Origin: Amoeboaphelidium protococcarum X5
Lineage: Eukaryota; Fungi; Aphelidiomycota
Direction: 5' to 3'
DNA: 64,000 bases
Assembly (NCBI GenBank): GCA_023515725.1
Contig: JALDTO010000098.1
Span: 956,164-1,020,163, forward strand
Part shown: positions 9,567 to 39,945 of the stretch, piece by piece
How positions within the stretch are numbered: the stretch's first letter is position 1
Layout of the letters: each line of letters starts with the position of its first letter
Made by a program: the position numbers and the translations under genes
Notes under the pieces: model-generated
Told to the model about the DNA's origin: nothing
The model's database searches: none
Seen by the model: the letters and a program-made list of their open reading frames with translations, nothing else

Positions 9567-11460
9567 TATTTTAATCATTGAAGATTCGTAAAATAAACTT
9601 TGAAAGATCATTTACGGCATTAATTTTTATATTTACGGGTCAGCATCTTTTCAAAATTTCTTTATAATAAGGATAATAATATATCAAAATATATGGCTTA
9701 CAACAATATCCAACAGTCTGTTATCGAAGAGTGTCACTACAACCAACAGTCTTCTTGCGATTTTGGCTGTTGATTATAATAATATACTCAATTTTTTTCA
9801 TTCGAATGGTGTCCCTTGCACGTCTTATCAATCTCTTCAATGGCCGCATTTAGAGCGCCAATATTCCTAGTCAATTCATCAACTTCGCCAGTTAATGACT
9901 GATTTTAATTCATTAAATCACCCAGTCTCTTCTCCAGAGTCTCTTTCCTCTCCACCTATTTCTAACGATACCGGAGTGCAGCTTCTCTATTCTTCTCACG
10001 TCTATGCTCAGTAATCTACCTCTTTGGACTCTTGCTGATGTTGTTCGTGTATCCAGCAACATGCTGCAATGACTATTATCTCTCTTATTGATACTAATGC
10101 TAATACACATGCTACTATTATTGAATAGACTAATGCATATGTTAATGAGGAGATGGTCTAAACTGCTCGTCAGATACCCCCTATGGAATACGTATAGGAT
10201 GAACTTCTTACTACTGATGAGAATCAATAGATGGATTCGGACTGATCAGGAATGGCGATTACTAAAATACAACAGCAGGAGCAGATTAGGAGTTACCATC
10301 ATAAAGCTGCGACGTTCTGTAAATCATACCAGCAGAAGGAGGATGATGATGGTGATGTTATTACTATTCCTAGAAGGAACCAGGATATCTTCGATTCGAG
10401 TGAGTCCATCGCGGGTTCTAATGTAGCTACTATTATTACACAACATAATTCTAAAAGCTCAACGATGAACTTTAGTCTTATGGCGGATTATTAGGATGAT
10501 TGCTAAAGTACTACTATTAATCTGACGAAGATTGCTATGAGGAGGCATTTTCAGACCAAGGAGTCGGATAGAATGGGGGTCTTACTGACGGCAGATGTAG
10601 CTCACGAATAGATGGTATGGTAGGCCTTACAACAGCATTCTAGTTTTAAGCCTATATTTATTATCGCTCCTTCTACCTCTCTATACCAGAATTCCAACTC
10701 TACCCGTGTTGCCACCGCCTTTGATCACCAACGCCACGTTGATCATCGCCACCAGAGCTGATCATTGCACTTTGAGGATCATCGGGATTGTTAAGCGGTA
10801 CTCGCTGATGATAAATCACATCATTATCTTCTTTGCCTCCACCCAGCTTAATATCCATCTATCGCGCAACACCGACTCTGTCTATGCCCTGATCATCGAC
10901 AATCTCCACATGATCGCTGGTTTGTTTGCAGTCGGCTGACTCAGCAGTAGTCGAGGCAACTGTTTACGGCTGTGAACAATCCTACGCTTATCCAGAGGCA
11001 TCTACGTCATTAGAATCAGCCAGAAGATTAGTTATATGCAATCGTTGACTAAGCTATTCAGAGTGTGAGTGAACACTTTGCCTTGACCCACTCGGTCGGT
11101 CTCCTCCTAATCCGCTAGTGGTGGCAACATCTTTTGCTGCACCTTCTTCTTGGTTCATTGCTTGAAAATTTCTATCACACAACAAATATTATGTACGGGG
11201 ATTAATTATATATATACGAATGCAGAAACAATGATAATAATAAGCAAAGAATGGCCAGTCTATTTGTATAATTATTATAATTTTTAAATCCAAATGCTTG
11301 TTGTTATTATTCAATTGATCGCAAGTCAAAGGTGTCGTCGCTTGTCGATCAATAAAATCGCTGGAAAAAACTTTGAAAGGCCGACGACATTCTCGCTGAA
11401 CTCGAGCGAAATAGCCGAGAATCGGTGATTGCAATCGTTGACCCCGTAGCCATCTCGACC

Positions 11461-14400
11461 CCGTGGAAAGGGGTACCTTACTACTCTTAAGCCAAATGTC
11501 GCTACAAAATTGTCGCTAACACGATCAAACGAATGTCGCTGACAATGTTGTTGACAATGTCGCTACATAAACTGCGCGTGCGACCAACACTGTTTCAGAA
11601 ATATCAGCTTCAGTATCAGATATACAGTTGCCTATATCTGACTCTGATATCAGCATTCAAAATAAAAAGTGCCGTGAGAAGCCTAAAAGAAAGTCGTAGT
11701 CAAAATATAGTATGATTTAATTTCCAATCTCAATACTTATTTCATTACTTTTGTAGAGCGAACTTCACTGTTAAGAGAGATTTTGAGAATGAACACTACC
11801 AATGGAATGTCCATCAGCAATTATGTCCCTCCTCCTGGTGCAAGGAAGATCAAGAGGCAGAGAGAAGACGCAGAAAATGCACCGATCCATCCTGGTAAGA
11901 CTTGGAAGTGCCCGATATGTAAAAATCTTCATTTCCCATCTAATAAGAAGCCGCACACTAAATTTTGTTTGGAATAGTTAAAGAAGAACAACAGTATCGC
12001 AGGTTCCGCGAATACTTTGTCAAGTTGGCTGACTGGAGCATCCTTACAATCAGTGGACTCTTTCGCTAATGTACCAGTTCATCAATCCGCGTCTGATCAG
12101 ACGCCTGAAACAAATGATATTAATGCTCATCATGATACTACCTCCTCAGTCGAAAATGATGATCAAGTTAATGCCACGTTAGTGATTGAGTAGAAAGATT
12201 AGAATTGGAGAAGTCATCCCTCCACCGCATTTATAGTCAAGTACACTGATGAGATTGACTACGCCATTAAAGGAACAGGTTCGCGCGGCTATCAATGCAA
12301 TGCAACGTCGTCAAGGTGTCATGGTGTCTGCGATTGCAAGCCGCTGAATCCTCTGTCCTGGCGTGATATCTGGATTTATCCGCCTAATCCTTTATTAGTC
12401 TCAGATTATATGGAGAGCTAGGATTTTGTGAAGGAGAAAGTTATATTCTGGACGCCAGAAGTGTTTTTCCATCATCTTGGTGTTCGCCACATGCCTTGTC
12501 CAGTTCATGGCGTTGTGGATGGTCACGTTAAGGTAGCAGGCTGGTCAGCAGTAGGGCCTCGAAAAGTAATAGGCATTGGTCAGTCGTATTACATCATGTT
12601 CAAGAGGTACAAATGCAATCTGTGTCACTGTGGTACTGGTGGCAGGACTGGTAAGGAGTTTCGTGGAATAGATCCAGATACTTTGCAGCATCTTCCTCCT
12701 CATGTTTAGCAATAGTTGCCGTGTACGGTGATTGACAACACGATCCTGGACAACTAATTGATTTAATTAATGGATAGGATGATCATGCGAGGAGTCTCTT
12801 TTAATGAGTTTGTAAAGATGTTGGATGAGCTGTTCAACAACTAGCATTAATCAAGACATCTTGCCTATCTGTCCGCATCAACATTTGTTAGAAGGAACCC
12901 ATAGAAGACTTTAATGTTTTAAGCTTTGCCTGCACTGATTGACCCATTTCCAGAATTCAGCGACAAAGATTAGTATAACGTATCCATTCCATCCACTACT
13001 GTTTTAAAGAAATTCTATTATAAGAGCCAAATGGATGTGTATGATCTGAAGAACGCCGCTGTCGCGCAAGTTACTGGCAAAGTTTTGAGCGGTGATCACA
13101 CTTTCAAAGCAGCCAAGGTGCCTGTGTCTAAGTCTCAGTAGATATTTGAGGGATTATACTCCTTGGTGAATGAGTATGGCCAAGTAGCTGGATTCTGGCT
13201 TGTGCCAAACAAAAGTCTGAAAGAGTTGACTGGTGAATTTGAAGTCTTGAAGCAGCGCTATGCGGCCAAAGATGAAGAGGGTCCTCAGGCTTTCTTCACA
13301 GATCTCTGCTGCACTGAAAGAGCATTTCTCTCTGATATGTTTGAATCTCTGTCAGCTACTGGATAAGGATAGCGAGTACTCTTGGATATATTTCATTTCA
13401 TGGAGCGGTATCCTGTTAAGAAGAAACATCCTCTATACTCTCTCTTTGCCTCCAACCTCCGCGACGCGATATTCATCTGTTCTGAAGAAGACATGCAAGA
13501 TGTGAAGTCAGTATTACAGCAGCGTGGAGTATCAGATAAGTAAATGGATCAGATCAAGAGAAGCTATCTATTGCGTAATGGTAAAGTGAGAAGATTTGTT
13601 CCACCTGCGGATATTTTGTCGAATAGAATTGATCAGGTGGTCTAAATGTTCAGAGCGGTTAACAGTGAGTTCATTGATGATCAAGTAATGAAACATCACG
13701 AGCGTAATCTGAAGCACGCCAAAGATGGCTGTTTATCAGATCCTCCTGGTGTTGACATGTACTTGCAATTAAAGCCTGGAGATGATGGATCTTTTAAGTA
13801 GTTCAAGTGTTTTAGAGGTACCAGCCAATAAGAAGGATATCACATGATGTTGTACAATGCGTTTTAAGCAAAGTCTATCTCTCCTGAGCTATATAATGTT
13901 ATGCTCATGGACTTTGTCTACAGAAGAAATCAAGATGCGGCACTGACCTGTGGGCTGACTCCGGATTTTCATATTTACAACCCACTAGTGCTGAGCTAAA
14001 TTAAGCAGTTGTATGTCGACAATGCGAAATACTTCAAGTGTCCTGTTTTTGAGAATCTGACCATTCCACAGGTATCTGAATTCTCAAAATCTGTTAAATT
14101 TGGCTGTAGTAAGTATTTGGGCAAATCTCTTGATCTAAAGAACATTTCTGACTAGTAGCTGATGATGGAATGCGAAGGTGGCTTTGATGAAGAACTGATT
14201 GATGCACTGGCCGATCCAGTTGAAGTTGATTTGACTGTTATTGATATGGATTAGAGTGATATATCTACTGAGCCCATCAAGCTGAACTCTGATGATATGA
14301 TCTCTAAGTTTGCATTCAATGTCATATCACGTCCCGTCTCCTCCCAAAAAGAGCTCATCTTATTCATGTCACTGTTTGAACAATATTGCACCAAGAAAAA

Positions 14401-15516
14401 CGGTGATGATAAGTAAGTAGATTATGAGTAAATGGCTGATCGATGGAATTTTCTGGTTTATAACAAGATTGCCGCCTGCTCAAATTAGTCTGAAGTTGAT
14501 GATTTGTTATCAGAATACTCTTTTAAAGCACCAAGCCATTTGAAGAGTTTTGAAGATATTGTGGAACGTAAGTTGGCATGCAAATACGCGATTGATCCAT
14601 TTAAGGCCCAGTTCAGACAGCTATAAAATCATTTGACTGACCCAACAGCATTGCATATTCCGTTCGAAATTCCGTAGTTGCATTAGGTGTCTACTGAGTA
14701 AACTGTCTAAGTAGTTGAACATGTATCTGTAGAAACACAGACTTCATTGAACAATTTGAGCTGCATCTGTCCTGCTACTCAGTCTGTTTAGAGTGTCAAT
14801 GATTTGCTTGCTACTGCAGATTAGGATATTTAGAGATTAGTTGATAGTATAGACGATGCTTACTTCACCAATCTGGATATGGGCACTTTGTTCAATCCAG
14901 TTTTGGGTCTGCCTGATGGTGATGATATTCCTAGAGTTGACAATTTTGGAGAGAATGTAGACATCAACGAACAGCCGACCTTTAACTAATTAACTTATCA
15001 TACCGTCGATATCATTTAAGCTGATACTGGGCCTGTCACAATGACTGAGGCTGTCAATTTGACTGAACTGCTGCGTTAGAGATTCGGCGACGACGTGTTG
15101 ACACCTGAAAACGGATTTGTCAATGAAGAAGAGTTGGACAGTAATTTGAGAAGCGAATCAGTGAAACAAGTCTGCAAAATCTGCTGGAAGCCAAGATTGA
15201 TGGCTGATTCCAATTAATGTACTGAAGGCCATTCTTCCAAAAGATGCGATGCATCAAGTTAGTTAGACGATTCTTTGTTGTAAATGCGTACAAGTCTCTA
15301 TAAAAAGTTCAGAAAGCGTGTAGAAAGAGAGAGAAAGTTGAAATAGACGTGATTTTATGAACTGATTGAGTAATTGAGTGGATATGATCGCAGATCTTCG
15401 GTTTCTTCTTACTCATCCCTTGAAATCCGTATAAAATATCGCAACCGACCTGCGGTCGGCAGCGATATAATTTTTTCCCGACTAGGCGTATAACCATATA
15501 ATTTGCCGTGGAAAGG
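11461..15516 (+). mobile_element. Putative DNA transposon (Dada/DUF6729-type); boundaries tentative
   Basis: Transposase ORF flanked by the 11-bp direct repeat CCGTGGAAAGG (11461-11471, 15506-15516), terminal hairpins and repeated AT(G/A)TCGC motifs. No long terminal inverted repeats seen. Confidence 0.55.
11496..15352 (+). CDS. DDE/DxxH transposase, DUF6729/Dada-like, ~1270 aa; intron 11710-11756 (alternative start ATG11789)
   Basis: Frame open 11757-15352 in table 6 in all segments checked. WIYPPNP, FWTPE, CPVH..GW..GPRKV..RYKC, VLSGDHTFK (D, 13094), VNEYGQV, FTDLCC (D), LDIFHFMER (DxxH), GCLSDPPG, RGTSQQEGYH (E, 13832), VDYEQMADRWN. N-terminal CPIC..H..C and C-terminal CKIC..H..C zinc-binding motifs. 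Confidence 0.8.
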
Positions 15517-15566: not shown

Positions 15567-18101
15567 TCAATGATCATCTCCCAGGATCTTGATAAAGTCT
15601 TCAAGCATATCTGTGTCAGGTTCGCGACTCAGAAACAGGTCCAGGATCTTGATATTCGTCATTTCTCTCAGCTAATCTTCTTCAGATAGCAATGGATCAA
15701 TTGGATCTCCTTGCATAATCTTTGAGTTGATTGTCAAAGCTACATACAAATTATACAACGCAGATTATTTGAATTAATTATTGCAGTCGCTCAATTATAG
15801 ACATTACCTCTTTCAATTATCGCGGTTGGAATTCCAGTCTCGTACGCGCAATGGATACCAAAACTACCATCACTGCAACCACTGGCCAACTTGAACAGCT
15901 TTTTAACACGACCACACGCTAAGGCTTTCATTCTTGATAGGGAATACGTGCCTTGATGGTCATCATCTTACTCCAATACTACTTGCATTTATCCAAAGCA
16001 TAGGCGGTGAGAAATTGATGATATGAAACTATCCTTCAACGCGAAATGTAGATGAGTGGCACACAGAATATAGGGAGGCTGTGATGCTTAGCTCCCTAGT
16101 AACTGATGCAAAATACCAACCTACAATCCAGTGCCATCCGCTACATCCGTACCTTTGCCAAATTCGTCAATAACAAACAAGCTCTTGCTATCGGATAGTT
16201 TCAACATCAGCTTTATCTGATCCAGGTCGATTTTGAAAGCTGATTTCTGGTTGGAAGCACTTTCGACAGTCTTCAAACGTGTTATTAACTTGTTCATCAA
16301 TGGTAAATGAGCATTGCTAGCGGGGACAAAGCAACCAATTTAAGCAAAGTACTGGATCAATGCAACTTACTTCAAGTATACAGATTTACCACTGCCATTC
16401 GGTCCAGTCAATATCAAGCCACGTACATTAGATTAAAACTGCAAATCGTTCGCAACAAAGTTGTTACAAGCAACTTCGTGTAAAATATGACGTCCTTCAT
16501 GGATTTAATAATCTTTAGCTCCGATATTTGGACGCGTACATTAGTGGCGTATGGACAGCATGGCGTAAGATTGCAAAACATCCAACTTGGCAATCTCCGA
16601 CTCCACACTTTCTAAGAAGTTGCACCCTTCTACAACTCTCAATTGCACCTCTTGCAGAATGTCAAGTTCTCTGTCCAGGATCAAATCTTCAACATCTCCA
16701 AACTCATCGTCCAACGCCTGCAAGTCAGAATCTTTAAAGTAATAGTACGTTTCATCACTAAACTAAAACTCCATCAGATGCCCGAATGCATTAGAATGAT
16801 CTGCCACAGTTATCAGAAAATATCCCAATTAAGCGACATATTTTATCTGCGCAAACGACTGATGCACATTTGCCGCACTGCACTTTTCGTATAGAATCTA
16901 CGTTAGAGTATCTCCTAACACGACCATTCTTCTTTTATACGCATCAAGTTGCTAGTCTTAACCGGCTTTAATCGAAGCATATCCAGTGGATTCAAAGTCA
17001 ATGACGCAGTTGATCAACTAGCTGACGTCTTCCAACGCATTAATATCAATCAATCGGACCAAAGATGCAAGCAAAAGATGAGACTGAACGTCAAAGCTAT
17101 TGCGTACTAATATTGATAAGCGGCCGAGTTGATTGCATGTCTACAAAAGTATTTAATTTAAATAACGCGCGTATATAATGCTTTTACCTTTAAAACAGAC
17201 TCCCAACAATTGACACTACGCCAAACACAAGTTGACTGTAGAAGAGACTTTAATGATTTGACGCCTTGAAGAATTTCTCGCAAATCATTGAGACAATTCT
17301 CATCGCTTACCAATACCTCGACCAAGTCATATCTCGTATTCAAATCAAACTTGGAGCAGGATGGTACATGCATCCATGCTTTAAGCTAATTGTATCCTGC
17401 CTTTGTACATAGTATAGAACTCAAAAAAGCTACAGAAATCTAACTAAGGTTAAATACGCTATATAATTCAAGGGTAGACTTACAATAAATGCCATCATGA
17501 ATGTCTAAGGCGTCTTAAGAATCCTTGTCAACCCACAGGTAGCTATCAAGTGTAAAGTACTCACTTCTAGCAATGTGAAACTCATTCGTTAACTCAGCCA
17601 TACACACCATCTACAATCAGCTCAGTTGCATGAAAATTGATGGCCGAAACGGGGCGATCGTTCTTACAGTAAGAGAACTTGAAACAGATCCCGTGAAATC
17701 GCGTCTGATCAGCTCTACACTTAAAAATTACACGTCTGAAACATTATCACTACATGAAACATACCAACTTCACCATCATCTTCCAGTTTCAGTCTTTCTT
17801 CACTGTCATTATACAATATAATTCTCATTGGATTCAATTGAGAGCAAACTACAACCATTTTACATGACACCACAATCCAAAAATGTTAAGACGTACCAAC
17901 ATTCAACAGGTCGTCAGGAGTGCTATTAAAGTCACCAGGCAGATGATAAACCACATTGTCTACATTAGACACGTAATTTTGAATTCTCGTGTACAGTATG
18001 TTAACAATATTACCTTTAACATGAGCACACCCAAAACTCCCGTGTTTATTGAGCATTATTGCAACAACTGAATCTGTACGTCTGTCTGCTAGATGCTACA
18101 T
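15567..18101 (-). CDS. MSH5: MutS homolog 5 (meiotic crossover factor), multi-exon
   Basis: [64 protein letters not shown]. N-terminal exons rebuilt by hand (GCAHVKD, QLNP, FTLDSYLWVD) across several short GT-AG introns. Confidence 0.88.
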
Positions 18102-23137: not shown

Positions 23138-24702
23138 ATGATTAGATCAAAGATTTCAAATTTCAATAGCATAGGATTTAGGTAAAGAGTATCCTTATAT
23201 AATGATACGCGATGGTCTATTAGTGTGAAGAACGTACTGAATTGTCAGCCTCGACTATTATCCACAATTCGTTCTATCACTGCGGAATACAGTTAATCAA
23301 CTCAGGAACGGCGGTGGACATCTGATGAAGATCTCACGTTGTAAATGTCTTTGAAAACTCATGGTTAGAATTGGAGTAAAATTGCGCAACTGTTATAGAA
23401 TAGATCGCCGCAATAATGCAAGCTGCGATACAAGTAGATGCTGGCCGTATGGAGACGTGAATCTCCGAACGATAAAGAGCGGCGATTGCATGGCAGTAAA
23501 CGTCTGGTAATGATCGCTATGGGCAGTAATGCTGTGGTATGTGTAAGTAAATTATCCGCTGCCATCTACACGGGAAGCAGTGCTCTGATGGCCGAGTCTT
23601 TGCATAGTGCGATGGATATGATCAATCAATGTCTTTTGTATGTGGGAATCAAGCGGTCTATACGGCAACCGAGCCCCACACATCCATATGGATTCCACAA
23701 AGAGTTGTACGGTTGGGCGATAATCAGTGCTGTGGGTGTCCTGTTTGTCGGCGGCGGAGTGCCCATATACACTGGAATCAGTGCCCTGGTTGATGGTATC
23801 CCACAAGCAATGACAGCCTCACAAGTCCAAGTGGGGTTCTCTGTGCTTGGCTGCGCTCTGGTCAGTGAGAGTTTCACCGCGTATAAAGCGTACAAGTAGG
23901 TGGCTCATAATGCTCAAAAGTCTTAAATGTCCGTGAAAGAGTACCTTCGCAATGGTTCAGATTCCAGCTCGGTACAAGTTTTGCTGGAGGATTCTTCATC
24001 CGTAATTGGATCTATAATTGCTGGCTCTTGCCTCGGACTTAGCTAGTTGTATCGCGACTTTTGGTGGCTGGATCCTATTGGTAGTTGTGGAATTGGCGCG
24101 CTCCTCAGCTCAGTGGCGCTATTTCTCATTAGACGCAATCTGTCCATGATGTTAGAGGTAAGTCTATCTTTGATTAGTAGAGTCTAAATCGCAAACATTT
24201 TTATGTAGAGTTCAATGCCATCTAATAAAGTTGCTATCCTCTAAAAGATTATAACGACGGATCCTATAGTCTAATCTATTCAAGGTGAGTGTTTCTATAT
24301 TACCCAATTTGACCCAACTACTGTATGTTAATGCGAGATTTAATGTAGATGTCAAGACTGCCGCGTTAAGCCCTGAGGATGCAAGATTTAAAGCAGAGGT
24401 TCAGTTCAATAGTGTAGAGGTGACTAGACGGTATATAATGAACAATGAAATTGATTTGAATTCAGAGCTGTAAAAGGTGAAAAGCTTTGATAAGGCTGAG
24501 CAATTGGAATAGTATCTCACACAGTTCGGAGGTAATGTGATTGAACATCTTGGTGATGAGATTGACCGGATAGAGGAAAACATAAAGGTATAATATTGTT
24601 CTAGTATATGGATAATAATTGTCAAACTTAAGTCATAAGCTCGTCGTTATAATGTAGGATAATGTTCCAGAAGTCAAACACGTTGATATAGAAGTAATGT
24701 GA
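23138..24702 (+). CDS. SLC30A9: Cation diffusion facilitator, ZnT9/SLC30A9 ortholog with N-terminal presequence and Myb/SANT-like domain; introns 24158-24208, 24285-24348, 24588-24657
   Basis: AESLHSAMDMINQ, HPYGF, ISAVGVLFVGGG, VLLEDS, DPIGS, DVKT..RFKAEV, LGDEIDRIE, PEVKHVDIE. Confidence 0.88.
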
Positions 24703-34695: not shown

Positions 34696-37600
34696 TCAAA
34701 CTTATTCGTTCACTTCGAAAGGATGTCTGCTGCATTTACTCTCATACACAGCGACAGGCAACTCAGACTGTGTCTCCATCTCTTTACAAATCTTCCTAAT
34801 CTGAATCTAAAACTGCAATGGGTCAAACTAGAATTATTACTACGTGTCGAGAATGGTGTGCTCAATGTCCTGTGCAGCATTCCTGGCCAGCATCATCTTC
34901 TTACTAGTGTCGGCCTTCTTACTGCTGGAATTCAGCTTCTTGAACAGTGTGCTAGAATTATCCTTACTATGAACTTCTGCTGGTGTATTAACAGAATCAA
35001 CAATGTCATGCAACTTCTACACCAACTTTTTACAAGTCTAAGAGGACACGAAAACAACCGTCGAGTAGATATTCAACGACATGATCTCAGACAGCAGACT
35101 ACTGAACCCAATAAGATCTGAATACATCACCACTAACACATGATATTATACTTATTGATTCAAAGCCAAGGACACGCGAGTTAGATTAGATGACACAAAT
35201 TTGATCTGCGGATACTTTTGTTAATAATACGGAATCTTCTTCGCAGTCTTGACAAAGCTCGATCTGTGCACGGAGTTTAACGCAAGATTCCCAGAAATCA
35301 ATTACAATTTAGAATCATCAACACCAATCAATTCACCAACAACAGCACCAACTTCGCTGGACACACGTTTCGCCACCAAAACATTAGCAGCATCGCTAAA
35401 GTCACCATCAAGAAAACAATAAATCTTTGCATTACTCTAAACTGCTTAATCCCCTCTGGCAGTTTGATCATTACTAATTAAAATCTTCTTTTAGTAACTT
35501 AATCTCTATCTAACCAAAGAGGGAGCATCAAAGTACGACTCCCATGGAAAAGCGGCACATGATTAAGAACACACCAAAGTGACTGGATCATTGACATCAA
35601 CAGTGAATTAGTTAGTTCTCTAAGGCAAAAACTACTAAAGCGCGGGAATAATTCTAGGAAACCATGTAGTTCGCAGATTATGCAGCAGTTTCAGTGTCTT
35701 CAAAGATGCCTGATTATCACCAGAGTCATAGGTAGACATCAGAAAAGTCAAAATTTCAAATACATCGCGCTTCTTCTACGCATGAAACTCTTTCGCCGGA
35801 ATAATAACATCTTGAATTGGGAGCAAAAATAATGACGGCAGAGTCTTTTGGTTCTTGGCATCGGTTTTCGTCAAGAGCTAAATTTCACTTACAGCAGAGC
35901 TATTAAGGGCATTCAACTTCATAAAGAGTGGCTTTCCAGACTTTTCAGTCCGCTGACTAAAGCTATACTACGATATATCAACTATTCCATCTCGCACTTG
36001 ATCTTGGAACGATGTAAATTTGGAATTCTTATCCACTAGTCGAATCTTTGATAACTCAGCAGAGTCAGCGTGTTATAGACCGGAAATAGACTAGATGGTA
36101 CTTACCTGAGATGCCAGGGAAGATTGAGTGGCAGTACTAATCGCAGAGGACTTGGAAGATGTGGTTGAGAATTTTGATTTATCAGAAACTTTCTACTACT
36201 CTTGAGTCGGCGAGAACAACTTAAGCAAAACATCATTCAGTGTTGCAGTGACTGGACATTCTACAGTGCACGCTATATCCGCTGCCTTGCTCGCATATAG
36301 CTTAAACTAGACCAAGCCATTCTTAGCTCTATCCACCAAATTGCTCTTATCACCTGACTCATTACCTGCCGGACTATTTAGACTGGCATCCGCATTTTCA
36401 GACGCGATGCTTTTCACACTAAATGCCTTGTACAATCCAATCTGAGGAGACATGAATGCAATATGACTTTCCAAATTCAGTATGTAAAAGTACCTCTCCG
36501 CATTAGGCTTGCTATTGGAAGATTGATCCACTGCCAACTTCTTCCACTTCTACAAAACGGATTACTAAACATGATCCACATAATCTTTCCAACTTTTCTT
36601 GTTCTTCATAAATGACTGACTAACACTTCGAAGTCCTAGCTCATAAGCAAGCAGCCAGCACAGAGGAGTTTTCATTTCACCATCTTTCATAGTCACTGCA
36701 GCAAAGTCCAGGGCAAGTTCATCTTTATCCGAAATCTGCTTCGATACAGCACCAACTGTAGCTTCGGAGCTCAAACTTTCAGACTCGACATTGTAATCAG
36801 AGTCTGAATCTTTAGTTAAAAATGAATCGTTCTTACCAATAGAAGCCGTCTTGGAAGTGGAATGACTATGATTCTGCTTTAACGACTCAGACGCCAGACC
36901 TGATTTGACATGCTTCATCTACGCGCCACCACGAATCAGTTTAGAAGAGTGATCCTTAGAAGTTGAACTGCTACTAAAATATTAATTCAAAGAACCAGGT
37001 CTTGATACAACAGAGTGATAATAATGATGAGATAAATATTACTGTTCCAGCTGTAGATATGCGCATGGAACATATTCATAATCTGCCCGTAATTTAGAGT
37101 CCTGAACGGCAAACAGATAACGGCTCAGTTTCATGTAACAATTTAGGACGGATTGGGGTACACGCCCAGTGTAGTTGCCAACACAATAAAAAGAGTCCAC
37201 AAATCTCACAGCCTCTTTGTAAAATTCCAAACTCAATTCGGCTTTTCCCATAACCAAAAGCAACTCAACTACATTGACATAATCAATCAGACAATGCTTC
37301 AAATTTCTCATCTGCAACGAATTGGCAAGACATTTCTGAGTATAATCCAGTAACTTCTCTATCGGGATATCAAACTAAATCGACTTTAAAACATCTTGCA
37401 GTTTCTAACCATCAATAGCGACTGCTGCATATGTATGATCCAAGACCAAACTTACAAACCACCTTCTTGCCATTACAGAATTGGACACTGAAGAGTCCCT
37501 TACCAAAATATCAAAAGCATTCCTGGCGACTGTAAATGCTTTAGCGGAAGCATCTGGAGAAATTTCAGATGGTGAGCGACGCGTCATAAAAGATGATTTT

Positions 37601-39945
37601 CGAGCAGACGAGAACATGGGCATATTCCCAATAGACATGCTTGATCGCACATTATCCTAGGCAAACGCTTAGTTCAAATCTTCTCTATCACTCAAGACGG
37701 ACACTTTGGAAATCAAACGCGCTTTCAGAACCAAATCAGAATCTTCCATGTACCTGTCATACAAAGCTGCAGCTTCACTATAGCGATGTAAATCAATTAG
37801 ACACTTAATTATCTGAACACAAACTTGATGACATTGTACATTGGATGTCTAGTAGTTGAACAAATGGCGACCAACAGCTTTACCAGCCTCAGATGGCACA
37901 AAATCAGCCTAAAATAAAAGCCCATTCAAAATGGCGTCCTCTCTAATCTATTTCTCGTTGCACAACAAATCAATAGCGTCAAACGTCCATCCACATTTAC
38001 GATAAACTTTGGCCAATTTCAGTGTCAAATCAAAACAGTCAACCGATGTGTTATGCTCAACAATAAATGTGGACAGATAAGCGGACGCTTCTGAAAAGTC
38101 ACCTATTTACAAACAAACGTCAGCAATCATTATGGTAATCTTTCGTAACTAATCGATCCAATGAATTTGAAGATTACCCAGACTGATATACTTATTAAAG
38201 CAGGTCTTCAACAATCTTATAGCCTAGTACGCAAATCCAGACTCTATATACACATTAGCCAAAGTTTGAACAAGATGGAAATACTCATTATGCTTCTCCT
38301 CCAAGGCACAGAGATCAATTGCGGCATAATAAAACTTGATCGCCTTTTCTATTTAGCAATTATCCAAACAAATTGAAGCCAAATTGGACAATTAAATAAA
38401 GGTGACAGGTCGCTTTCTCAGCCTCAAATTCTCAAGAGCAGCATCGAAAGCATAAATAGCAAACAGAGCCTTCTTATTCAGCAAGAGCAATTCCCCATAC
38501 AGACGGAGAGCATTGTAACCAAGAGTTGACAAGATTGGATTACTATGACGCGTCTTTAACTAATGCAGTAGACAGATGCATTCGAAAGCCAGAGACTCAG
38601 CAACCGCCAATGAATTATTTTCATGCATTTCATATAGAGCACAAACATAAGCAGCTTTAGCCTTGACATAACTGAGCAAAGATTTATTATAAAGCGCCTG
38701 TATCTCTTTAAATCTGTACTCGGAATCTACAGCAATACGCATCTGATCATGTATCATACTAAATGCATCACTCTAATCATCTTCCAAATCTTCCAAATTC
38801 AAAGCTTCCGTACTAAGAGGATCAATACCAAAATTCAGACACTGAACATCACTAAGCACCGCCAACTTGAGACTAATCAGAGCTGTACCATCAATATTAT
38901 TCGACTACTCTCGCAAAAGTAACTCATACAATTGACAGAGCTCATGCTCACACGGAAGAACATTCTTCATATGATGCACAGATGACTCAATCTTCAGCAG
39001 TCTCATTTAAATATCAAAAGCTGCACTACCATTTATCATGGATTTGAAGCCATTATTGCTGAGGATTTACAACTAACTAAATACTTTCCACTTGGCATTG
39101 TATGATACTAATCGCAAAGCCTGCTCTTCAATCGCAGCGGTTCGTTAAATCTTCTGCTGCTCTAAACAATCAAAGTACTTTTGAATAGTCTCCTCGCATT
39201 GCGCAAAATTATTCAATCTATAATCCGTCATAAACTAATCAAATTATTTCTAAATCGAACTATCACCGCTATTTGTGATATCTGAAGTGTTGGCTCTACT
39301 ATCATCATTCACATTATCCAAAAGGCCAACGATAAAATTCTCCATGTGAGACTCTGGTATGAACTTGCTCTAATTAATAGTGAGACTGAATAGCATTGTA
39401 CTCTTTGGATACTTGACAGTCTTAATGGCATTTAGTGCAAACTTATCTTCAAATCTAAAATTCTAAACCGACAATTCTTATCCAGCACCTTGCTGACTTG
39501 AAGTAGATGAAGCACTGGTCGGAGTGGCAAACAGCTCCGTGTGCAGATTCTTGGTCAGCTTAGTCCTATCAATCTGCTCCCCTAAAAACTCTGAATCCCA
39601 GTCATCTTCAGCTTCTTCGGGTTCTTTAGATTATAATTTCTATGATTATACAGGGGACTTCGCATCAGGCGAGTGACTTGTGGAATTCGTAGCTCCATTA
39701 GGAACACTGACAGGGGCACTCTTCTCAATGGACAGTCTCTAGCTATTCTTTGTTAAATTCTCCTGCTTAGTAGAAGGCGTGGTGACTTCATTATCATCTT
39801 AAAATTCATCATCCCAATCTTCTACTTAAAAGTTGCCAGCATGAAGGCCCACAAGCGCAGTAGAAGCTTCAGTATCAGCCTTTACAATTTACGGCGCAAC
39901 ATCATTTCCACCAAAATCAGAATCCCAGTTTTCGCTATCATACAT
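34696..39945 (-). CDS. Large uncharacterised protein, ~1749 aa: acidic WDxxF motifs, helical/TPR-like core, C-terminal CHAT/separase-like 'PWE' segment
   Basis: Track ORFs 38560, 37405, 37039, 36565 and 36307 share one frame from ATG39945 to TGA34696. Possible 60-nt in-frame intron 36046-36105. Confidence 0.75.

Follow-up and report, generated by a model that had tools for sequence, protein, structure and literature searches.

Evidence for a multicopy Dada-type DNA transposon with defined ends outside small-RNA genes in the aphelid Amoeboaphelidium protococcarum

The stretch of DNA analysed here (the window, 64,000 nucleotides of contig JALDTO010000098.1) comes from the aphelid Amoeboaphelidium protococcarum X5, a parasite of algae, and carries, at 11471..15507 on its forward strand, a segment of 4037 bp with the ends 5'-GGGTACC...TTTGCC-3' that we interpret as a whole transposon of the Dada superfamily. 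Its limits are given by a step in read depth, by the loose ends of other copies and by a comparison of the ends. The 8-bp sequence GTGGAAAG stands as a direct repeat on either side, at 11463..11470 and 15508..15515 (both +), and is found singly in contigs of the empty site; we read the two as the left and right copies of a target-site duplication (TSD). Our analysis indicates, with a probability that we put at about 0.8, that this is a complete multicopy Dada-type element recently inserted between two host genes, an estimate that includes its activity and its lack of a small-RNA target.

The transposase gene consists of exon 1 (11496..11709, +), whose ATG falls 25 nt within the left end, a predicted GT-AG intron of 47 nt (11710..11756, +), and exon 2 (11757..15352, +), which is read in NCBI translation table 6 and closes with a TGA stop. 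In that code an open reading frame (ORF) runs from an internal ATG at 11789 to 15352 and encodes 1187 aa, with 43 TAA or TAG codons read as glutamine; in the standard code the same frame holds 43 stops, and its longest open stretch is at most 95 aa. The ATG at 11496 lies in a different frame from this ORF, and the intron, bounded by the sole donor/acceptor pair in the tested ranges that yields an open frame, links the two into a product of 1269 aa identical to the NCBI protein model P0010. A preliminary description, made from the letters alone, had spoken of an ORF of about 1270 aa hidden by the recoded genetic code. The hiding is borne out, while the length holds for the spliced form and not for the unspliced ORF. 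That description also called the element invisible to standard-code annotation; a standard-code scan would indeed miss it, but NCBI already has copies, entered as hypothetical proteins and unrecognised as transposases. A second family of the same species has a similar N-terminus and a KRTSL.R.IL.M stretch upstream of the internal methionine, a similarity that would support the predicted splicing of exon 1, although conservation of the very first residues could instead reflect overlap with a terminal DNA repeat.

All four catalytic motifs named in the preliminary description are present and intact in the translated ORF: GDHTFK (D436, 13094), TDLCC (D505, 13301), LDIFH (D533/H536, 13385) and RGTSQQEGYH (E682, 13832). 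In 100 aligned sequences these residues are conserved in 95 (D436), 99 (D505), 95 (D533), 94 (H536) and 90 (E682). Together with the predicted model and the fold matches this conservation delimits an RNase H-like catalytic core at 13094..13834 (+), in which D436, D505 and D533-x-x-H536 are followed by a helical insertion domain and E682. The second aspartate is separated from DxxH by just 27 aa, so the exonuclease is absent, as had been claimed; 69 of the 92 scorable rows of the alignment have an insert of more than 200 aa at this place. Pfam DUF6729 matches above its cut-off (E 1.7e-11), and the DUF6729 region (12368..12937, +) includes, by column counts, a Dada-type zinc finger C237/H240/C276/C279, whose second ligand is histidine here and cysteine in 62 of 67 non-gap rows. 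Zinc-binding motifs are found at both ends of the protein, again as described: C41/C44/H56/C60 is the first, and a C-terminal CCHC finger, C1129/C1132/H1148/C1153 (15173..15247, +), has the same pattern in the second family.

An AlphaFold model of residues 188-744 (predicted local distance difference test score 95, predicted template-modelling score 0.91) places the core elements in RNase H order, with the two aspartates predicted at strand ends, DxxH followed by the helical insertion and the glutamate in a helix, in line with the RNase H fold for which a structure prediction had been proposed. The closest solved fold is that of the IS256-family transposase ISCth4, which fills the top five Foldseek rows (E 3.5e-6), aligns over model residues 12-536, and reaches Z 15.2 in the VIA comparison (root-mean-square deviation 4.5, 337 residues aligned), followed by a next chain at Z 9.8, Hermes at 9.1 and the P element at 8.7. 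The absence of any MULE structure from the Foldseek and VIA lists is not evidence in either direction. A sequence search of solved structures gave no match; P0001 has no match in NCBIfam, and the element protein has none to IS256 (Transposase_mut) in Pfam or NCBIfam and none to the MULE families of Pfam.

The spacing between the catalytic residues D, D and E is 69/177 aa, compared with 68/176 aa in Dada-U6_DR (PMC3706591), and six of the eight matching passages of published Dada DNA in the supplement of PMC8869645 encode RGTSQQEGYH or RGTSQQEGFH. The fish DUF6729 protein P0008 aligns collinearly (23% identity over 592 residues, E 1e-27); 73 of its 74 relatives are named as ray-finned fish proteins, and ray-finned fish are the known vertebrate range of Dada. 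By spacing, motif and fish homologue, the element is thus predicted to encode a Dada-type DxxH DDE transposase, in agreement with the preliminary description. The transposase family comprises 1734 clusters at E values up to 0.001. One member, P0006 from Leucocoprinus, bears an exonuclease that by eye looks like those of Dada-1_LB and Dada-2_LB, and shares the core at E 3e-25.

In a FastTree tree (58 rows, none dropped, 505 columns, midpoint root), whose weak deep nodes lead us to draw no order of events, one clade (support 0.99), separate from the fish proteins, unites environmental sequences with two Paraphelidium proteins and three families of A. protococcarum. Some of its members have the exonuclease insert and others lack it, and the fungal exonuclease-bearing P0006 is sister to the clade under the midpoint root (0.87). 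The second A. protococcarum family (P0004, P0005 and P0024) shows about 50% overall identity, keeps its triad intact and occurs in several copies; the third (P0034) keeps a 3'-5' exonuclease insert, and its DxxH aligns as DxxW, so that P0034 may be inactive. P0029 and P0033 are Paraphelidium tribonemae proteins, whose membership suggests a long residence of these elements in aphelids. The close environmental relatives P0025 and P0027 sit on contigs of 4015 and 4029 bp, near the element's length, which could represent collapsed multicopy elements. One further protein, itself unnamed, came from a profile search for named relatives. Scans of metagenome contigs gave 9 pattern matches with P0001 as query and 287 with five close relatives, and a scan of viral contigs gave 42; none was confirmed.

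This site taken alone permits duplications of 5-11 bp, and other copies were therefore needed to fix the ends; lengths of 6, 7 and 9-11 bp, which fit this site alone, do not agree with the flanks of those copies. The ends were set by contigs from four studies: sequencing runs X1-X3 represent one sample, perhaps the source of the window, X9 and X10 are likewise one sample, and X9/X10, X6 and X5 belong to three other studies. Among the matches listed, loose ends lie before 11471 in X1 (one contig) and X9 (two); an end-to-end junction discussed below resumes at 11471, the X5 contig starts there, and one X1 flank departs at 11470 instead. On the right, loose ends among the matches listed lie behind 15507 in X3 (one), X6 (two) and the X9/X10 junction, and contigs stop at 15507 in X3, X6 and X10. 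As had been claimed, there are no long terminal inverted repeats (TIRs): the tips share just GG/CC, no inverted match between the 200-nt ends exceeds 6 nt, and a repeat finder returned no TIR pair. The left tip GGGTACC agrees with the pattern NGGWACC published for the ends of Dada-U6_DR, Dada-U6_CT and Dada-tY_CaAu, a post hoc match with a chance probability of about 3e-4. The left junction of Dada-tY_CaAu reads GGTACCT in the text of Fig. S2 of PMC8869645, like the tip of this element, which suggests that the published end may be a few bases off. Four subterminal TGTCGCT repeats fall within 68 bp at the left end (11497..11564, +), out of 13 occurrences on both strands of the window, and are candidate transposase binding sites; at the right end, 15436..15468 can fold as a subterminal DNA hairpin with TATCGC on both arms (DNA fold of 15353-15507, z -2.6, with 3 of 300 shuffles equally stable).

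The element is present in many near-identical copies. Exact matches to P0001 and P0010 lie on 4 and 3 contigs, respectively, and the cluster at 90% comprises 21 members (15 listed), in two locus-tag series. Full-length copies are 98.8-100% identical (0-14 residues different), which points to recent movement and not to a domesticated gene, while three older proteins are about 92% identical; all four motifs occur in 11 of 16 member proteins, the other five being fragments or a split pair. Depth in X1/X2 rises from about 100-115 per allele outside to 1400-1800 inside the element, corresponding to about 15-fold (13-19) in these runs compared with about 4-fold (3.6-4.7) in X9/X10, where the fold-depth of contigs is a rough value and not a true copy number. 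The 64-kb window itself holds no second copy. Among the 24 runs listed with matching sequence there is no RNA data set, which has no bearing on expression. Contigs of the empty site are found in X1 and X2, as a joint that skips the element, and in X3, X9 and X10, where the left flank is joined to the right flank, in two alleles in X9/X10. The same site is therefore empty on the homeolog, where the preliminary description had proposed to look, and in a second sample; an empty homeologous site fits because the genome of the species is duplicated (PMC10608142). Many near-identical copies, empty sites and intact motifs uphold the earlier view of a multicopy, potentially active element and indicate recent activity.

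Two further observations concern copies. In X1-X3, over window positions 13590-14210 and 15315-15458, a copy at single-allele depth differs from the element by about 8% and by small indels; it is an older insertion of the same family. Run X5, recorded under another organism, contains element positions 11471-15450 at 99% identity but nothing of the host flanks; this is most simply explained by aphelid DNA at a low level, and transfer is a possible alternative.

Could the gene instead be a single-copy host gene derived from a transposase? A domesticated Dada is known in carps, and the ORF is intact with a host-like share of TAR among its glutamine codons (0.56, compared with 0.38-0.59 in 7 host ORFs). 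Against this stand the empty homeolog and alleles, the sharp ends with a duplication, the many copies, their unequal number between samples, and the intact catalytic residues. The empty-site contigs rule the domesticated gene out, so that we give this explanation practically no weight, and the single-copy gene that the preliminary description had named as its own refutation is not what lies here.

That description had also proposed a target-specific element, in keeping with Dada as a target-specific superfamily whose families with definable ends were all reported in small-RNA genes in PMC3706591. The insertion would then lie in a multicopy small-RNA gene too divergent to recognise. By eye, the site CCCCGTGGAAAGG does resemble the U6 target CCCCTGCGAAAGG, and ATTGCA, TGACCCC and TAATTTGTGG near the site are reminiscent of U1 motifs. 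ARAGORN and Rfam find no tRNA or RNA family in the window or in either flank (best flank E-values 0.61-9.5), shuffled sequences fold as well as the rebuilt empty site (z -0.2 and -0.5), and that site lacks all 7 small nuclear RNA and tRNA motifs tested; on these null results we reject U1, U5 and U6 readings of the target. Moreover, the flanks of other copies are unrelated to those of this site and to each other. NCBI models fuse identical copies to host genes, P0003 with PIG-U and P0015 with LplA (lipoate-protein ligase), which are probably annotation chimeras at other insertion sites and place copies beside these two genes. The target specificity originally envisaged is thus not supported, a small-RNA-gene target is largely refuted, and an unrecognisably divergent target gene is in our judgement improbable. 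Since it has no small-RNA insertion site, we file the element by transposase homology as an untargeted variant, outside the targeted lineages.

Besides the roughness of the fold-depths, several observations weigh against our reading of a complete, untargeted element with an 8-bp duplication. About ten flanks were seen, several of them as mixed consensus, so that a short or weak target motif may exist. Two right flanks deviate by one base, one in X3 departing at 15506 and one in X1/X2 at 15508. Both flanks are seen at one site only, so that the 8-bp length rests on a single insertion, and no left/right flank pair of another copy could be matched. The X10 right flanks other than the junction all begin with G, and at the eighth base outside the left end two X9 flanks read A in their mixed consensus; should the X10 and X9 flanks belong to the same copies, at least one X9/X10 copy has no perfect 8-bp duplication.

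How does such an element move? In X9 and X10 a contig of 60 nt joins 30 nt of the right end, the spacer AATCAA and 24 nt of the left end, at the depth of one allele (48 versus 47 in X10), so that it is probably a chromosomal head-to-tail dimer and not a free circle. Tandem dimers of IS256 are reportedly known. At a word length of 31 letters, a spacer found solely in the junction would predict a contig of 66 nt, rather than 60, and by the logic of the assembly graph another path should therefore enter the left end via AATCAA, that is, a genomic copy with that left flank. An 8-bp duplication with a 6-nt spacer is the geometry of ISCth4, which makes 8-bp TSDs and junctions with 6-8-bp flank-derived spacers and integrates best at 6 bp (PMC7780238). 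We see close to an even chance that the element follows an IS256-type end-to-end joining route. The transposase would recognise the ends through subterminal motifs (the TGTCGCT repeats and the right-end hairpin) instead of TIRs; one end would be nicked and joined to a point 6 nt beyond the other, which would yield a circle or, between sister chromatids, a tandem dimer; the junction would then be cut and both ends integrated with an 8-nt stagger. With a TATAAAA 71 nt within the right end and the first ATG just within the left, a promoter could come from the joining of the ends.

Eukaryotic DDE elements move by cut-and-paste as a rule. This untargeted Dada element may likewise follow an ordinary MULE/hAT-like cut-and-paste route, the 6-nt junction being a rare side product of one-ended transposition or of a local hop beside a resident copy, a plausible account that we nevertheless place somewhat below even odds. 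In its favour, MULEs are IS256-related yet use flank hairpins and cut-and-paste (PMC5499845), tandem dimers are common in cut-and-paste elements, as in Drosophila DNA transposons (PMC5932611), Hermes and the P element also match the predicted fold, and the junction is known from one sample, at chromosomal depth. On the other hand, a double insertion leaves the full TSD between the copies (8 nt for hobo, PMC5932611) and not 6 nt, and no other X10 right flank begins with AATCAA (5 of 5 right-flank contigs). Hairpin transposases of hAT and MULE elements need a conserved tryptophan (PMC5499845), while no tryptophan column is conserved at 90% in the aligned relatives, and the ISCth4 match stands well above those to hAT and P.

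One may ask whether the IS256-type route extends to Dada elements in general. Published Dada elements include one-ended insertions, 6-mers carried along and a tandem spacer of 6 bp, and the possibility of an 8-bp duplication in Dada-U1 was left open (PMC3706591). Dada elements would then be eukaryotic copy-out/paste-in transposons, and the untargeted aphelid family would expose a true geometry (an 8-bp duplication and a 6-nt flank-derived junction) that identical small-RNA flanks hide in fish. We offer this only tentatively, as a generalisation with rather less than an even prospect of holding; if true, it would account for the one-ended insertions, the carried 6-mers and the 6-bp tandem spacers alike.

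The genes around the element are ordinary host genes by their Pfam matches. On the left, 312 bp separate the element from the first in-frame ATG of a bZIP gene (9788..11158, -), and on the right a MutS-family gene (15567..17610, -; Pfam MutS_V and MutS_III) has its likely stop 59 bp from the right end. Named matches point to A. protococcarum as host, consistent with the aphelid host claimed earlier, and the UAR-to-glutamine code of this species is already published (PMC5304391). The window is gene-dense eukaryotic DNA, with 7 ORFs of at least 150 aa in the standard code versus 58 in table 6. Among them, the ORF at 23138-24376 (code 6) combines a Myb DNA-binding domain with a following cation-efflux domain, an unusual pairing, and a 1749-aa ORF at 34696-39945 (-) has a weak TPR match as its sole match.

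Dada is already known in fungi (PMC5751038), and its occurrence in an aphelid is therefore a range extension. The new features are the position of a Dada family with defined ends outside small-RNA genes, its 8-bp duplication, a length below that of all earlier families and a junction like that of IS256; we found no prior description in the literature searched, and the species' genome paper and Repbase may already list the repeat. Being compact and intact, recently active and varied in its flanks, the family offers unambiguous ends and a duplication length, and it provides a naturally untargeted control with which the determinants of targeting can be mapped. A length of 4 kb and a single intron make the element practical to recode and assay, so that the Dada mechanism becomes directly testable. 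Should the junction reflect the main pathway, a eukaryotic DDE transposon would here use copy-out/paste-in; a circular route was proposed in passing for KolobokP (PMC9587614), the sole such suggestion we found. In addition, our analysis ties Pfam DUF6729, which no paper found in the literature searched names, to Dada, and flags chimeric gene models in the A. protococcarum genome.

More generally, the element most resembles the Dada superfamily (Kojima and Jurka 2013, PMC3706591; Kojima 2022, PMC8869645), with which it shares the DDE and DxxH core with the same spacing, RGTSQQEGYH, the C-terminal zinc finger, an intron, the absence of TIRs, a similar NGGWACC end and a 6-nt tandem-junction spacer. 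It differs from the published families in lying outside small-RNA genes with unrelated flanks, in its 8-bp duplication (at one site) as against 6-7 bp, and in its length of 4037 bp as against 4666-10979 bp. Of the N-terminal CCCC finger of Dada it keeps the position and three cysteines, with histidine as second ligand (C-H-C-C). From fish Dada it is separated by about 23% identity, a separate tree branch and a TAR=Gln code; with the fungal Dada-1_LB and Dada-2_LB, represented by P0006, it shares the core but lacks their DEDDy exonuclease, an insert that separates the second D from DxxH and that P0034 and some close environmental relatives keep. Like MULE/MuDR elements such as Muta1 (PMC5499845), which have IS256-related DxxH transposases, it has subterminal repeats. 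MULE/MuDR elements, however, have TIRs, a conserved tryptophan and hairpin cut-and-paste, there is no MULE Pfam match here, and the MULE/MuDR Atlas leads reach 0.80-0.82, below the 0.9 level. With the IS256-family ISCth4 (PDB 6XG8/6XGX; PMC7780238) it shares the closest fold, the DxxH group and the helical insertion domain and, as far as one site and one junction show, the 8-bp TSD and the 6-bp junction spacer; ISCth4 is, by contrast, bacterial, about 400 aa long and bounded by 35-bp TIRs, with 10-11% identity, and its circles are demonstrated where only a dimer-like junction is seen here. Thus, having neither a TIR nor a Transposase_mut match, the element may work like IS256 without being an IS256 member.

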